This document shows positions 3,147-8,757 of a stretch of 16,007 nt of DNA, in pieces. The notes beneath the pieces were generated by a model. That model was given only the letters and a program-made list of their open reading frames with translations. It made no database searches and was not told the DNA's origin. Within the stretch, counting starts at the first letter, position 1; the number at the start of each line of letters is the position of its first letter. The stretch comes from an uncultured archaeon. Its GTDB lineage: Archaea; Asgardarchaeota; Lokiarchaeia; Sigyniarchaeales; SOKP01. The position numbers and the translations under genes were made by a program. The stretch spans positions 1 to 16,007 of the forward strand of contig CAZBPC010000076.1 in assembly GCA_964493715.1 (NCBI GenBank), read 5' to 3'.

Positions 3147-5460
3147 TTACGATTTCTTGTATAAAAATCTCTCCCAACTTGCACTTTTTGGCATTTCTAG
3201 AGCCATTCCCTTCCGTTTTCGAATTTCCATAATCAGGTCTTCTTCGATGCTTCCAGGAACCTTTTCAAACCCTAAGAATTCGTATCCGAAAAATGCTCTC
3301 CCTTGAGTTGATCCTCTGATCTCATCAGCAATTCCTATTAATTCTGCTGCGGGAAGTTGTCCTTGAACACGCACGTATTCTCCTTCAGGTATCACGTTTA
3401 GGACTCTACCTCTGTGTTTATTGATAATTCCTAATACACCTGATTCTGTTCCTTGTGGTGTTTTAACGTCTATTTTCTGAACTGGTTCAAATAAATGTGG
3501 TTTAGCACTTAACATTGCCATAGAAAAAGCAGAGAAGCTCATACTAGCAATTTGATTGTATCCTGTATGTGCGGGATCTTCGTGAATGGTTAAATCAGTA
3601 AAAACGACTTTTATACCGGCAGCGGGTTCTTTTGCTAATATAGCGCCCTCTAGCCATTCTCTAAATGCTGCAGATAAATAAGATTTGATCCTATCAAACC
3701 TTTGGAGTCCGGTAGTACCATTAACTAACAGATTTCCATTGTACACATCAACAATTCGGCGTGCTTCTTTGGCATCCCATCCTGCTTCTTCACGTAATAT
3801 TTTTGCTTTGGTTTTATCATCCATCAATTCGTTGATACCTCCTCTTTCTATTAACGTTTCTGTTGTTTCATCAAGAGGTTCCATGTACATAAGCATTCTG
3901 TTATGACTATTAGAGGATTTGGTATGAAATTCCTTGCTTTTTGTTGTAATCTTTTCCCTGTAAACGATAATAGGTTCTCCAATATCAATTTTTACTTGAT
4001 TGTTAATACGCTTGGTGAGGATATCAATTTGAAGTGGATCAATGCCAGAGAGAATGTATTCCATTGATTCTTTATCAAGACGGAATTTTGCTGTTGGATC
4101 AGCTTGGAGCCATTTTCCAACTACATCTCCAAGTTTTGCTATATCATGTGGATCTTGTGCTTTAATGCTTCGTGATACTACTGCTTCACAAGCATAGCTA
4201 ATTTTTTCAAATGATGGAAGCGCTGCTTGTGCTTCTTTATCTCTTGGTACATCATTAGCATTTAAAAATGTTTCACCAGAGGGACAAATAAAACCATAAA
4301 TTGCGAATAAATTTCCCGCGGGAATTTTTTCAACATCTAATATATCGGTGATTTCCATCACTCCAAGTCGTTTAACTCTATTTGACGTTCTACTGCCAAC
4401 TAAATAAATTGAGTCTGTATGATGAAATGTACCAGAAAATACTCTACCAATAAGGGTTGCTTGATAATTCTTCTTTGGATCAAGAAAAATTTTAGTAATC
4501 ATTCCATAGAGAGGGCCATTAGGATCACTTGCTACAAGAGCTTTCCCTAAATCAGAATCCAAGTCTCCACCCCAAATGTGGGGAATTCGATATTTTGCAG
4601 CAGCTGTTGGGTTGGGTAGATGATCTACAACCATTCTCAACATTGGTTCATCTAATGGAAGATTATCACGTAACCATTGAATATTTCCTTCATTATATTT
4701 TTGAAACACATCTTGAGGTTTTAATCCTTTTTCAAGTAAGATTTCATAAGTGAAACCCCAACCGTGTTTAGCTGAACCTACAGCAACGCTATTCTTTGAA
4801 AAATCGACGCCCCAATCTGAACCTTCAGGACGAATTTTTTTAATTAAATCATTTACTTGCATTGAAATTTTATCAATTTTTTCAAATGTTGCTTGAGGAG
4901 TGAGTTTTAGTTCACTTATTAAGCGATCCACCTTGTTAATAAATAACACGGGCTTACAATACTCTTCTCCTACAGCAAGTCTAATATTTGTCTCAGTTTG
5001 TGTCATGACACCTTCAAGAGCATCAACTAAAATAATAGCACCATCAGAACCCCGAAGGGCTCGTGAAACTTCTCCCGTAAATGAGATATGTCCGGGTGTA
5101 TCATTAATCTGGAAGATATAGGGCTCTTTGTCTTCAGGTGTTCGCGAGTCTTCGAATGAAAGCAAAACAACAGACGTGAAGATTGTGATTCCTCTGGCTT
5201 GCTCCTCTTCTTTCAGTAAAATAAGTAATTCTTATTCTAAATCTGAATCAGTCATTTGGAGCTGACCAGCATCTTCTTCTCTCATTAAACCAGCGCGACG
5301 CAAGAGATAATCTGAAGCTGTAGTCTTCCCATGCTCTAGTTTAGAGACTAATTGTCCTTTAAATATCTATGTGGGCGACTATAGAAAAGATTCTCTTTTT
5401 TTCAAAGTTCGTACTTGTTACCATGCGGGCGATATCTTCAGGGTTTTTTACTTTAACCAT
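3147..5460 (-). CDS. Archaeal elongation factor 2 family GTPase, probably the aEF-2 paralogue. Spliced: complement(join(3147..5210,5241..5333,5365..5460)), 750 aa
   Basis: Exon 1 encodes MVKVKNPEDIARMVTSTNFEKKRIFSIVAHID. Exon 2 encodes HGKTTASDYLLRRAGLMREEDAGQLQMTDSD. Exon 3 encodes EEEQARGITIFTSVVLLSF...DTPGH...NKVDR...GSAKHGWG...GRVFSGT...HEDPAHTG...IRKRKG. The ORF-track entry (3147..5165) lacks G1 and G2. Confidence 0.92.
5211..5240 (-). other. Candidate BHB-type mRNA intron 2 (30 nt) in the EF-2 switch-I region
   Basis: Minus-strand sequence TTAGAATAAGAATTACTTATTTTACTGAAA lies between TDSD and EEEQARGITI, with an in-frame TAA at 5232-5234. Fold: perfect 4-bp central helix TCAG/CTGA; bulges AT|T and AA|G; 9-bp intron stem TAGAATAAG/CTTATTTTA (one G-U); loop AATTA; distal exon stem CTGGT/GCCAG plus GCTCC/GGAGC. 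Confidence 0.88.
5334..5364 (-). other. Candidate BHB/BHL-type mRNA intron 1 (31 nt) in the EF-2 G1 motif
   Basis: Minus-strand sequence ATTTAAAGGACAATTAGTCTCTAAACTAGAG lies between the GAT (D) and CAT (H) codons of AHIDHGKT. It shifts the frame and has an in-frame TAA at 5359-5361. Fold: exon stem TAGTC/GACTA plus CCCA/TGGG; central helix ATAG/CTAG (3 of 4 bp); bulges AT|A and AG|C; intron stem TTTA/TAAA plus GGAC/GTCT; loop AATTA. Confidence 0.85.
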
Positions 5461-5466
5461 ATATAC

Positions 5467-5523
5467 TTCACTTTTTATATTATATTATATAATTCTAATG
5501 TTATGAATATAAAGAGAAGTGAA
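5467..5523 (-). promoter_or_regulatory. Putative EF-2 promoter: TATA-like TTATATAA (5485-5492) flanked by an inverted repeat
   Basis: TTATATAA is centred about 28 nt upstream of ATG 5460. The arms are TTCACTT-TTTATATT (5467-5481) and AATATAAA-gag-AAGTGAA (5506-5523). The AT-rich context lowers significance. Confidence 0.35.
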
Positions 5524-5608: not shown

Positions 5609-8146
5609 TTATAAGATCGTCCGCATATCATATTTTGGCATTATTTCATAAAATTCTGCTTGTTGTTTTAATGACCAAAATCTAGGGGCATATCCATATT
5701 TTAGAGCAGCTTTAATCATCATTCCTATACCGATATAGTTTCTCTTTTCAATTTCATTGCTAAAATTTGTAATATGACTTGTAATTCCCAAATTTGGATT
5801 TACCTCTTTCATTACCCATAATAAATTATCTGGATCATTATTAGTTTTATCAAAATCGATATGATGCAACTCCCAAACAGATCGCCCACTCTTGTACTTT
5901 TTATCTCTTCTATATATATTTCCTGTGAAAGCGTCAAACATATATTCCAATTGAGTTAGTGAATTTTTAGTGTTTCTACTTTTTTTTACAAAACCCTGCA
6001 GAGAAAATACTTGTTCTCCAAGGATGCCATCCCTTTTTTTAGACCAGTCGGAGGAATGTTTAGAATTTACATTACCATATAGCTCTAAAGATTTTCTTTT
6101 TAGGTAAGAATTATAATCAGGATATTGACTTTTAATTTCATTAACTCTATCAATTTTTTGATACACCCTAATATATGTTAAAATATCAGAATATGCTTTT
6201 TTATCAATTTTAGCTAATTTATCATTTAATATCCTAGAAATTTTTATGAAATCTCTGGGATAAAAAACTCTGTATAATTGATTTTCTCTATCGCTTAGTT
6301 TTGGCTCAATATCTATTCCAAAAAATTCAGTTAATTCATTAATGGTGGGATATTCACTTCTCCAGCCCTCTGATATCTTTAGTTTTCCTAATGCATTGAT
6401 TAAATTATCTACTAGTTTGTGTTCTTTATATTTGATAAACGATTTCTCAACAGCAATTATAAAGATACCAGAGAATCGTGCTAATGCAATAATCATACTG
6501 TCGATAAATTTTCTATCTTCTTTATTCAAAATATTTTGATTACAATAGTTTCTAATCCGTTTAAGGGTATTTTTACTTAAATCATTCCTAAAATAATATT
6601 TTGTTACTAATCCTATTGATCCATCTCCAAGAATTTCTTGCCCAATTTCAGAGAGGCTTACAAATCGATTATATTTGTTAGAAATTACTCTCTGTAATGC
6701 TTTAAATAAAATCCAGTTGGGTTTATTTTGAACATCTTTATAAGTCAAGTAATTAATTCCTAATACATTACTAGAATAATCCTTGATTTTCATCAGAATA
6801 TCTTTACGTTTATTAATATCTATTTCCATTTTATCTATTTGAAGAAAATAATCGAAAAGCATTTCAATTTTAGTTGGATGGAATGCTACTTCACTATAAG
6901 GTACACTTTTTAATTTTTGATCACTCATTCTTCGCGTAAATTCAGATCGCCCAAATTTATAGATTCCATTTTTATATGTATCAATGAATTTAGCTAATTG
7001 TGCTGCCCATGACCATTTTCCTTTATAGTTGAAGATAATAGTTTCTAATTTTTTTTCTAACTTATTTTCATATATCATATTATAAAGTTCATCCCAGGTT
7101 GAATTTACATTCTGTCTCTTCGTTATAATATGATTTTCAATTAATATTTCTCTAAGGGCGTTAGCCGGTAGAGTTTTTATTAATTGTGGAATATGAACAT
7201 TAGCCATATTAATTATTAATTTTTGGTGCTCTGTATATTCATCTATTTTAAACTCCACCTTTCTTATACGATTAACAGTATTGTTACAATTCATTATAAG
7301 TTCTTCAATATCCGATTTAGTAAATTTTTTGGTTAATCCATTTGAAAAGAAATCGAAATAAGCATTAAATCGATCAAAAGCTGTAATTTTTTGAGTAGCG
7401 TTTTCTCTTTTTTTAGTCGAATATCCAAGAACACACATGCATATTCCCATATTAAGGATAGAATCGTAAAGCGTCTTAATTTTAGAGAGAGAAATTTCTT
7501 GAGTGTTTCCAAATGAAAAAATCTCTTTTTCCGCTAGTTTATATTTTTCTAACCAGTCAGAAAGTATCTTTTTTAACTTAGGAGATGGTGGGTTAAGCAC
7601 TATAAGATCATTAAATACTTCGTGGTGGATTTTGAGATGTTTAAGCAATCGTGTGTACTGTTTTGTTATTTCTTGAATACCATCTTTAATAACCTGAAAT
7701 TTTTTAATTTTCTCAGATTTAATATCGTTTTTTAGAAATGTTAGTTGTTTTTTAGATAATTGTTTAAGATATGAATTGGAAATTGAATCTATATACTTTG
7801 AAATGATTGGAGCACCTCTTCCAGTTGTAATACAATATACCCACTTTCTAATGAAGGATTCAGTTTCTTTAGGGATTTCTTTTTTAATAGTAGAAAGCAA
7901 ATCATGAGAAGGTAAGCAAGAAATATCAAATAGACAAGAGAGAGCAGCATCTACAAAATCTACAATTCTTTCATCAACATAGACCATTGGGATTTGATGT
8001 ATTTTGCATTTTGGATATTTACCAAATCCCAGAAATCCAAGTTTCAATGGTTTGACTCTAATTATTTTTTCACATCCAAAATTAGGACAGATTGCTATTC
8101 GATCCTCCTCTACAGTTTTCCGACTTGCAATAGAACACGACTTCAT
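5609..8146 (-). CDS. Large protein with an N-terminal putative Zn-binding module and a C-terminal HNH endonuclease motif
   Basis: N-terminal CPNFGC...YPKCKIH. C-terminal WELHHIDFDKTNNDPDNLLWV...SH at about 5775-5875 matches the HHID-x4-NN-xxxNL HNH signature. Length 845 aa. Confidence 0.7.
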   Translation of the reverse strand: MKSCSIASRKTVEEDRIAICPNFGCEKIIRVKPLKLGFLGFGKYPKCKIHQIPMVYVDERIVDFVDAALSCLFDISCLPSHDLLSTIKKEIPKETESFIRKWVYCITTGRGAPIISKYIDSISNSYLKQLSKKQLTFLKNDIKSEKIKKFQVIKDGIQEITKQYTRLLKHLKIHHEVFNDLIVLNPPSPKLKKILSDWLEKYKLAEKEIFSFGNTQEISLSKIKTLYDSILNMGICMCVLGYSTKKRENATQKITAFDRFNAYFDFFSNGLTKKFTKSDIEELIMNCNNTVNRIRKVEFKIDEYTEHQKLIINMANVHIPQLIKTLPANALREILIENHIITKRQNVNSTWDELYNMIYENKLEKKLETIIFNYKGKWSWAAQLAKFIDTYKNGIYKFGRSEFTRRMSDQKLKSVPYSEVAFHPTKIEMLFDYFLQIDKMEIDINKRKDILMKIKDYSSNVLGINYLTYKDVQNKPNWILFKALQRVISNKYNRFVSLSEIGQEILGDGSIGLVTKYYFRNDLSKNTLKRIRNYCNQNILNKEDRKFIDSMIIALARFSGIFIIAVEKSFIKYKEHKLVDNLINALGKLKISEGWRSEYPTINELTEFFGIDIEPKLSDRENQLYRVFYPRDFIKISRILNDKLAKIDKKAYSDILTYIRVYQKIDRVNEIKSQYPDYNSYLKRKSLELYGNVNSKHSSDWSKKRDGILGEQVFSLQGFVKKSRNTKNSLTQLEYMFDAFTGNIYRRDKKYKSGRSVWELHHIDFDKTNNDPDNLLWVMKEVNPNLGITSHITNFSNEIEKRNYIGIGMMIKAALKYGYAPRFWSLKQQAEFYEIMPKYDMRTIL

Positions 8147-8757
8147 AATTTAACCATTTCCCCCTTTTTTCGATTATTTTTTTGTTGGATAGGATTAGGA
8201 TTTAGCATTTCAATTTCATTTTCTATGGATTTATAGTCCCCACACAATTCCTCATAGAACTCAAATTGTTGTCTATTTAGGTACATTCGTGTCTTACATG
8301 CTTCTTGAGCTATCTTCATTATAACTTTAAAAAAAGCAGGTCGCAAGAGCATATTTTCTTCAGAAAAATAATGAATTAATATAAATAATTGATTAGTTAA
8401 GTTCACTAAGTCCTTTAAAAGAGAGGAGTTAACATTATTTCTAAAGTATAATAGATATTGAAATCTTTTCGCAGTAATTCCATTATCCTTGAGTTTATTT
8501 AATAACTTAATATAACTTAATGCTAAAGATTCAAACTTATATTTTTTCGCTTGAAATTTTACAATTCCCTTACTATCGTTGTTAATCTCATTAGAGCGTA
8601 ATCTGTGATATATAACCGAAGCTCTATAATTTAATAAAGTCCGGATTTGTCTGGAAAGATCTTTAATCACTTGAACGCATTCGATATTATACCAATTCTG
8701 GAAATCATTATCTTCCTCATAGTCCAAATAGGATAGATCATCATACATAAAATTCAA
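8143..8757 (-). CDS. Hypothetical helical protein, translationally coupled to the HNH protein
   Basis: 204-aa ORF whose stop overlaps the ATG of 5609..8146 by 4 nt (ATGA). The start is uncertain: TTG 8757 or the following ATG. Confidence 0.6.
   Translation of the reverse strand: MNFMYDDLSYLDYEEDNDFQNWYNIECVQVIKDLSRQIRTLLNYRASVIYHRLRSNEINNDSKGIVKFQAKKYKFESLALSYIKLLNKLKDNGITAKRFQYLLYFRNNVNSSLLKDLVNLTNQLFILIHYFSEENMLLRPAFFKVIMKIAQEACKTRMYLNRQQFEFYEELCGDYKSIENEIEMLNPNPIQQKNNRKKGEMVKL

Follow-up and report, generated by a model that had tools for sequence, protein, structure and literature searches.

The stretch of DNA described here (the window; 16,007 nt) is contig C76 (CAZBPC010000076.1) of a Lokiarchaeial genome bin of 3.68 Mb, 160 contigs and 31% G+C, and it carries on its minus strand a gene for elongation factor 2 (EF-2) whose reading frame is interrupted by two short inserts. 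Exon 1 (5365..5460, minus strand; 96 nt, ATG at 5460) encodes MVKVKNPEDIARMVTSTNFEKKRIFSIVAHID and aligns colinearly with the N-terminal part of 26 orthologues that lack interruptions. It is followed by a 31-nt insert, here called intron 1 (5334..5364, minus), which splits the P-loop as AHID|HGKTT and introduces both a frameshift and an in-frame TAA. Exon 2 (5241..5333, minus; 93 nt) encodes HGKTTASDYLLRRAGLMREEDAGQLQMTDSD and is separated by a 30-nt insert with an in-frame TAA, intron 2 (5211..5240, minus; TDSD|EEEQARGITI), from exon 3 (3147..5210, minus), which has 2064 nt including the stop codon and encodes 687 aa. Read without splicing, the frame of exon 1 gives MVKVKNPEDIARMVTSTNFEKKRIFSIVAHID and then meets ATT TAA in the first insert; the stop of the second insert has the context TTA GAA TAA. 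Scripted excision of both inserts by coordinates joins 96 + 93 + 2064 nt into a frame of 750 aa with zero internal stops that reads ...IVAHID|HGKTT... and ...MTDSD|EEEQARGITI. As the letters flanking the inserts differ, neither junction can be shifted by even one base. A preliminary description, made from the letters of the window, had read the inserts as two introns of the tRNA-endonuclease type within one gene of an Asgard-type archaeon, and had proposed orthologue alignment, covariation and a genome scan as ways to check this; its coordinates, lengths, in-frame stops and stop-free 750-aa product were all reproduced.

The interrupted gene belongs to the EF-2 family. Taken alone, exon 3 starts at position 48 of Pfam GTP_EFTU and at position 61 of the NCBIfam aEF-2 model, and therefore about 60 family residues must come from upstream. 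It also matches Pfam EFG_III, EFG_IV and EFG_C, and it aligns to positions 61-720 of 720 of TIGR00490 with 573 bits, the equivalog cut-off being 738 bits; the gene is therefore assigned to the family. A second EF-2 paralogue lies intact in the same genome (C1:99073-101259, plus; L002:1318-3504), has 729 aa, is 33% identical and scores 635 bits on the aEF-2 model, likewise under 738 bits. The second paralogue lacks an H.D..H motif; the window EF-2 has HEDPAHTG at the corresponding place, which we take to be the position of the diphthamide motif H.D..HRG.

Sixty related genomes were searched, and orthologues within the same genus were found at 75-91% identity. Relatives found in a second search, of named bins, are labelled “Promethearchaeota archaeon”, i.e., Loki-type Asgard, in agreement with the host proposed in the preliminary description. 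Among 29 EF-2 loci whose 5′ ends were read (the locus in the window included), 26, all of them among the 28 relatives, encode the same N-terminal residues in a single unbroken frame. Because these 26 relatives are seamless, the two EF-2 junctions are fixed independently of any RNA motif. Intron 2 occurs at the identical site in three of the 29 loci (the window, L005 of genome G023 and L007 of genome G015), and intron 1 in the window alone. The named bins yielded two further carriers of intron 2 (L055 and L056); over 44 distinct orthologue sequences, intron 2 is present in 5 and 39 are seamless. The copies are clearly homologous: the intron 2 of the window differs from those of the other carriers at 3-8 of 30 bases (6/30 for L005, 3/30 for L007), and synonymous sites are saturated between the window gene and those of L005 and L007 (proportion of synonymous differences, pS, 0.77-0.80).

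The distribution of intron 2 is patchy on a quick maximum-likelihood tree of 40 exon-3 proteins, from which the partial or N-containing L030, L031 and L052-L055 and the duplicates L040 and L051 were left out. The genome studied here groups with two seamless sister species, and the carrier L005 branches outside this group; the sisters of the carriers L056 (L041) and L007 (L008 and L012) are seamless as well. Intron 2 could be either one old intron with many precise losses or an element that spread laterally into the same site. Inserts at other sites of EF-2 genes were also found. In the EF-2 of another Promethearchaeota bin (L048, at about 660-690 of the locus), a different 30-nt insert with a GCGC/GCGU helix and a 9-bp stem splits TAH|...|IDHGK 6 nt upstream of the intron 1 site, and the P-loop codons have thus been struck at least twice independently, by intron 1 and by the L048 insert. 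The second EF-2 paralogue of a genome from another family of the class (L039; G058:C23:61107-63674, plus) has a 33-nt insert at DTPGH|VDL with a TAG stop, a GGUC/GACC helix, an 8-bp inner stem and bulges AU|U and AA|G.

The RNA structure of the inserts was compared with the rule known from the archaeal cbf5 intron, in which cuts fall between the second and third residues of each bulge (PMC2738675); inserts were scored by this rule at the junctions defined by homology. Intron 2 forms an exact bulge-helix-bulge (BHB): the exon strand UCAG (5243..5246, minus) pairs at 4/4 positions with CUGA (5213-5216), and this central helix is flanked by the bulges AU|U on the 5′ side (5242-5240) and AA|G on the 3′ side (5212-5210; all minus). 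Its 30 nt are laid out as 1 + 9-bp stem + 5-nt loop + 9 + 4 + 2, with the inner stem abutting the 5′ bulge, and the BHB is the minimum-free-energy fold (z = -2.67; 4/200 shuffles equally good). Intron 1 forms a relaxed BHB, in which the exon strand AUAG (5367..5370, minus) faces CUAG (5336-5339) with 3/4 positions paired, between bulges AU|A and AG|C. Its inner stem has 4+4 bp (UUUA/UAAA and GGAC/GUCU) with an asymmetric loop and the loop AAUUA, and an exon-exon outer helix CCCA/UGGG is present that is longer in the 71-nt fold. The preliminary description had drawn a 4-nt central helix with 3-nt bulges for both inserts; this was correct for intron 2 (4/4), but the central helix of intron 1 has 3 bp (UAG/CUA) and an A.G mismatch. 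Its further statement, that the cuts predicted from the BHB coincide with the junctions that restore the protein, proved right for both inserts, with the junctions set by the seamless orthologues. The coincidence extends to all five inserts that were found by protein or Pfam alignment, without an RNA motif (introns 1 and 2, the L048 and L039 inserts and an insert in rtcB described below). Four of the five have perfect geometry with a 4/4 central helix and one, intron 1, is relaxed; the 5′ bulge is AU|N in all five, and the inner helix has 8-9 bp in the L048, L039 and RtcB inserts.

When the five copies of intron 2 are aligned, 95.7% of cells pair, vs. 36-56% with partners slid, and one stem pair changes from A-U to U-A in two sequences while the loop varies freely. 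A sharper signal than this stem covariation comes from the exon, whose synonymous letters co-vary with the presence of intron 2: TCAGAT, the helix strand plus bulge, is found in 5/5 intron-bearing alleles compared to 10/39 intron-less ones, and the remaining seamless alleles read TCTGAC, AGTGAT, etc. in its place.

Both EF-2 inserts are likely to be enzyme-spliced mRNA introns of the archaeal tRNA-intron type, as judged from the letters of the gene and of its relatives. In the EF-2 pre-mRNA, each insert would pair with the last six bases of the upstream exon, and the fold would comprise a 4-position central helix between the exon and the 3′ part of the intron, a 3-nt bulge on each strand and an intron hairpin of about 9 bp stacked on it. 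A two-subunit (alpha-beta)2 EndA would cut after the second base of each bulge, and RtcB would join the 2′,3′-cyclic-phosphate and 5′-OH ends. Ligation would restore the codons of the P-loop AHIDHGKTT and of the switch-I segment DSDEEEQARGITI, giving the 750-aa EF-2. The two introns would belong to a genome-wide class of mini-introns of about 29-31 nt that lie inside conserved catalytic motifs of many genes, rtcB among them, and that would be gained or lost precisely between close species. The core of the preliminary description, two introns of this type in one gene, is supported by everything in it that could be tested. The anatomy of the inserts, their precise junctions and conservation, the selection on the gene, the occurrence of the inserts in DNA and that of genes for the enzymes were observed; EndA cleavage, RtcB ligation and the existence of a spliced mRNA are inferred.

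It is hardly conceivable that the inserts are an assembly or binning artefact and not part of the organism’s DNA. The genome is a metagenome bin of 160 contigs, and the Logan contigs of DNA run X1 break inside intron 2, one ending at 5231 and the next starting at 5235, a gap that may stem from variation in the population or from the assembly graph breaking at the hairpin. However, contigs of DNA run X8, which comes from another year and study code, cover 5159-5336 and 5312-5481 with 0 differences and thereby span both inserts, the X1 contig over 5235-5600 includes intron 1, and homologous inserts are present in bins of several other assemblies. The preliminary description had named absence from DNA reads as a possible refutation, and the contigs of these two independent runs speak the other way.

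The EF-2 gene is under purifying selection. The ratio of nonsynonymous to synonymous substitution rates (dN/dS) of exon 3 is 0.075 and 0.107 against the two closest seamless orthologues, and 0.060 between the seamless pair, and the relaxed selection that the preliminary description had associated with a pseudogene is not apparent in these values. Decay of the gene into a young pseudogene, or inactivation of the intron 1 allele, with hairpins left by elements like miniature inverted-repeat transposable elements (MITE-like) or as repair footprints and the second paralogue as backup, would fit the intact EF-2 paralogue on C1, the uniqueness and structural imperfection of intron 1, and a terminal branch that is somewhat longer for the window gene than in its two closest relatives. 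It is an improbable explanation, however, in view of the dN/dS values and of exons 1 and 2, which are intact and differ from L003 at 4/63 residues. Intron 2 also persists in five species with open flanking frames, and like inserts occur in single-copy essential genes, the sole RtcB found being split. Moreover, the EF-2 paralogues are not redundant, because every relative keeps both. For intron 1 alone, a pseudogene remains the main doubt.

Inserts of the same architecture were sought on both strands of the genome by combining BHB geometry with the joining of two otherwise interrupted open frames. In the strictest set (0 mismatches in 13 pairs, G-U allowed; 30 nt), 6/59 structural hits join frames, compared with 0/52, 0/54 and 0/60 in decoys with parallel pairing or with the 5′ or 3′ bulge widened by two; the real geometry at lengths of 26-40 other than 30 gave 0-2 joining hits. 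One of the six strict hits is EF-2 intron 2; the other five interrupt a class-I tRNA synthetase (PMGYD|SFGLPAEN) that resembles, by eye, leucyl-tRNA synthetase (LeuRS), a thiolase (EVHDCFTI|TE), a thiolase-N-like gene, a VWA_CoxE gene and a thiamine pyrophosphate (TPP)-enzyme gene (..ATR|FCSGCG). With one mismatch at 30 nt there were 12 joining hits vs. 5-7 in decoys, among them inserts in NAD synthase (FTKYGD|GGVD), RNase HII (DEAG|RGP) and an AMP-binding enzyme (SWM|MWNW); at a length of 31 nt, another thiolase was hit. The inserts of the LeuRS-like gene (C44:26027-26056), the two thiolases (C28:23007-23036 and C120:4198-4228), NAD synthase (C39:8748-8777), RNase HII (C2:42636-42665) and the AMP-binding enzyme (C19:23103-23132) are all on the plus strand, and three others are candidates only (C145:299-328, minus; C28:34412-34441, plus; C53:2033-2062, minus).

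The two halves of these genes fall on consecutive Pfam positions in NAD_synthase (3-143 | 144-242), tRNA-synt_1g (4-46 | 48-135) and Thiolase_C_1 (14-49 | 52-143 and 1-48 | 51-143); the halves lie at 9-208 | 223-312 in AMP-binding, and the RNase_HII match runs from position 9. In all inserts but two the layout is 1+9+5+9+4+2 = 30 nt, and their sequences are otherwise unrelated. From such sequence features, inserts of the same predicted architecture are present in at least ten further conserved genes of the genome, a scope that the preliminary description, which had suggested looking for BHB motifs in interrupted conserved genes, underestimated. The count is a lower bound, because the filter on open reading frames (ORFs) was strict and missed the intron of RtcB. 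Looser scans (inner helix of at least 5 bp, or at most two mismatches) were swamped by chance, with 92 real vs. 60 decoy joining hits at 30 nt, and only the 0-1-mismatch sets were used, a genome of 31% GC being rich in chance hairpins. Whole-genome hairpin counts without the ORF criterion showed no peak at 30 nt.

The enzymes that such splicing would need are encoded in the same genome. There are two tRNA_int_endo genes, located on C5 and C58 and both above the cut-off. The first is an ORF of 207 aa (L068) that aligns end-to-end with 3p1z_B, a crenarchaeal EndA chain, and retains Tyr, His and Lys at the aligned positions; the second, of 205 aa (L069), is closest to the Methanocaldococcus jannaschii EndA and has Ser in place of the His of KEHS. 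From these alignments, L068 is read as the catalytic alpha and L069 as the structural beta subunit of EndA. Asgard EndA is reported as an (alpha-beta)2 enzyme with a loop giving broad specificity (PMC5829648). For RtcB a single gene was found, which is likewise interrupted; its two matches (484.5 + 54.2 bits in all) together cover Pfam positions 1-47 | 48-426. Its 29-nt insert (C2:12136-12164, minus; locus L070/L071) lies inside PGGVGY|DINCGVR and has perfect geometry, with the central helix UUGG/CCAA, bulges AU|A and AG|A and a 9-bp stem. The same insert with one base changed occurs in G001 (L072); G022, G006 and G014 are seamless, and the RtcB exons of G022 are almost identical to those of G001, yet uninterrupted. 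In the other relatives with a full-length RtcB match, the frame is open over about 480-550 aa. Should RtcB be the ligase of these exons, the rtcB mRNA itself needs RtcB that is already present.

A recent preprint describes Asgard tRNA genes as heavily interrupted and does not treat mRNAs (10.64898/2026.10.13.758758), and the tRNA genes of this genome, as detected with aragorn, agree with it. In a bin rated 100% complete, aragorn found 27 tRNA genes, and probably many others are too interrupted to be recognised. Introns at gene positions 30-42 were called in 12 of the 27, and four of these introns are 29-30 nt long.

Short inserts in coding sequence could also be passed over by translational bypassing, in which they would stay in the mRNA and the ribosome would hop across. 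Bypass elements are known from T4 gene 60 and from the yeast mitochondrion, where the “byp” hairpins are 27-55 nt long, and they need matching take-off and landing codons. The EF-2 inserts resemble them as short hairpins in conserved coding sequence, with a stop right after the last exon codon, and bypassing is compatible with the RNA data at hand, whose contigs cover only 3457-4588. However, bypass elements are retained in the RNA between take-off and landing codons of identical sequence, whereas exon and insert end in the same three bases in 0/12 inserts. Bypassing also leaves unexplained the exon-intron helix of 4 bp with 3-nt bulges at a fixed distance from the junctions, the constraint on synonymous letters of the exon, and the occurrence of 29-30-nt inserts in tRNA genes. 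It is accordingly a very improbable account of the inserts.

Several observations weigh against the reading of the inserts as spliced mRNA introns. Intron 1 folds no better than shuffles (z = 0.33 at 51 nt, -1.22 at 71 nt), is limited to one genome, and has a central-helix mismatch and an irregular stem; it may have entered the gene recently and undergo little or no splicing. Covariation in intron 2, which the preliminary description had suggested as a check, gave one compensatory pair and the high pairing described above but is modest over five sequences, its score being attained by 39/500 shuffles. Most inserts have little or no outer helix to close the 3′ bulge (0-5 bp; 1 bp in intron 2). 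The contigs from RNA runs X19 and X20 are confined to 3457-4588, with none over 5200-5400 and no exon joints seen, and those of X20, 92-95% alike, probably come from relatives. In contigs of Joint Genome Institute (JGI) metagenomes, a junction of the species itself with a gap of 0-30 nt was not found, a scan that is uninformative because records of this genome may be left out. As for the other genes, the scan used BHB geometry, and the structure of the scanned hits is thus partly circular evidence; independent support for them is given by ORF joining, Pfam adjacency and the decoy controls. Pfam saw one half only in the C145, C28:34412 and C53 cases, among which are the VWA_CoxE and TPP-enzyme genes, and these therefore stay candidates.

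Since the outer helix is mostly short, the inserts are relaxed motifs, similar to a bulge-helix-loop (BHL), whose cleavage by the EndA of this organism is predicted. According to one study, relaxed motifs are cut by two-subunit or epsilon-type endonucleases only (PMC5829648). Removal at the RNA level by another pair of nuclease and ligase, with a logic as in IRE1-RtcB or SOS splicing, would also accommodate the mostly missing outer helix of the canonical BHB, as well as the uniform 9-bp stem and 5-nt loop, which go beyond the known needs of EndA. Paired inverted repeats reportedly can trigger RtcB-dependent excision in SOS splicing (PMC12779559). Such a pair is unlikely, however, as the cuts fall exactly two bases into 3-nt bulges that are four positions apart, the ruler of EndA as given for cbf5 (PMC2738675). 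An EndA of the two-subunit type with broad specificity is, moreover, encoded in the genome, in which EndA and RtcB were the candidate enzymes sought.

The closest known system is the intron in the pre-mRNA of crenarchaeal cbf5, reportedly described by Watanabe et al. in 2002. A later report links this intron to a hetero-oligomeric EndA with relaxed specificity and states that, as of 2009, pre-mRNA splicing was confirmed for no gene besides cbf5 (PMC2738675; Yokobori et al., 2009). As in cbf5, where the catalytic Asp codon is interrupted, the EF-2 introns lie inside a catalytic motif and are gained or lost among related species. Unlike cbf5, with one intron in one gene of Crenarchaeota, the present case would comprise two introns in EF-2 and others in at least ten more genes of an Asgard host, with a uniform hairpin architecture of 29-31 nt and an intron in rtcB itself; splicing is proposed here from genomic evidence, whereas that of cbf5 was shown by complementary DNA (cDNA). 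The EF-2 case is very likely a far larger variant of the crenarchaeal cbf5 splicing. In eukaryotes, the HAC1 and XBP1 mRNAs are cut by IRE1 at small stem-loops and rejoined by RtcB-type ligation, the XBP1 intron being 26 nt long. Similarly, the EF-2 inserts would be short introns that leave an mRNA without the spliceosome, with joining by RtcB and a change of reading frame. In contrast to the eukaryotic system, with IRE1 and one regulated target, many constitutive targets are proposed here. The XBP1 intron is also mentioned in another report (PMC12530127).

SOS splicing reportedly excises hairpin-forming transposons from animal mRNAs independently of the spliceosome and with involvement of RtcB (PMC12779559). 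It shares with the present inserts the inverted-repeat hairpins and the tolerance of a gene for insertions because the RNA is repaired, but it acts in animals on large transposons with a different or unknown nuclease, whereas the inserts described here have about 30 nt and no transposase or terminal-repeat signature was seen. The introns of Asgard tRNA genes are alike in recognition motif and in the enzymes presumed to act on them, and they too were gained independently more than once, by a route yet to be explained (10.64898/2026.10.13.758758). However, they reside in a structural RNA whose mature fold helps to form the motif, while in EF-2 the host is an ORF and the intron supplies nearly the whole structure. 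In the text of this preprint the word “mRNA” occurs zero times and “protein-coding” once, on neighbouring genes (10.64898/2026.10.13.758758). No account of endonuclease-type introns in Asgard protein-coding genes was found in the full-text literature, with most subscription journals and supplements outside its coverage, and within that coverage the searches agree with the preliminary description, which knew of none.

Overall, the EF-2 inserts are very likely real mRNA mini-introns of the EndA/RtcB type, and the Asgard relatives of eukaryotes probably splice many mRNAs without a spliceosome. We lean, with some reserve, toward a broader reading, in which obligatory spliceosome-free mRNA splicing would take place on a genomic scale in Lokiarchaeial Asgard archaea, with uniform hairpin mini-introns of about 30 nt, mobile or precisely erasable, in the catalytic motifs of a dozen or more core genes. 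The genes in question are EF-2 (twice), its paralogue, LeuRS, thiolases, NadE, RNase HII and RtcB, the last with a self-dependent loop, and the reading draws on homologous copies that share one site across three or more distinct clades, while sister species are seamless. If this is true, gene callers truncate or split such genes in Asgard bins, and inferences on completeness, gene content and eukaryogenesis are distorted. The organisms would depend on EndA and RtcB for enzymes of translation, replication-repair and central metabolism. The inserts would also allow the gain of introns in prokaryotic mRNAs and their exact loss to be tested on a concrete case, at sites in conserved motifs as with inteins and homing introns, and would be a natural precedent beside eukaryotes for RtcB-dependent mRNA repair of the HAC1/XBP1 and “SOS” types. 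The prokaryotes most closely related to eukaryotes would then have had interrupted protein genes and constitutive mRNA splicing, with the tRNA-splicing machinery and not group II introns as the basis. Whether the archaeal host of eukaryogenesis was already able to handle interrupted protein genes would become a testable question.

Some other candidates were discarded. Group I and II introns, inteins and readthrough were dropped for the inserts, which have 29-33 nt, all contain stops and in two cases are not multiples of three. The GTP_EFTU matches at the edges of C13 and C154 come from a single intron-less aIF2-gamma-like gene, whose two end pieces overlap. A 174-nt “insertion” in L055 (about 1322-1425) is an N scaffold gap with duplicated 75-nt flanks, an artefact of that bin, and 329 surplus nt in L048 go back to a second, weak high-scoring segment pair, the true extra being the 30-nt insert near the P-loop. 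Stops noted inside the second paralogue of six genomes (G002, G027, G007, G057, G040 and G038) do not correspond to an insert or internal stop in the aligned stretches; they presumably lie outside these and are probably the natural stop codon, and a real insert in this paralogue was seen in L039 (G058) only. Directly upstream of EF-2 in the window, an ORF of 204 aa (8143-8757, minus) matches no Pfam family, and an ORF of 845 aa (5609-8146, minus) has a single weak match, to HNH_3 (E = 7e-5, below the cut-off).

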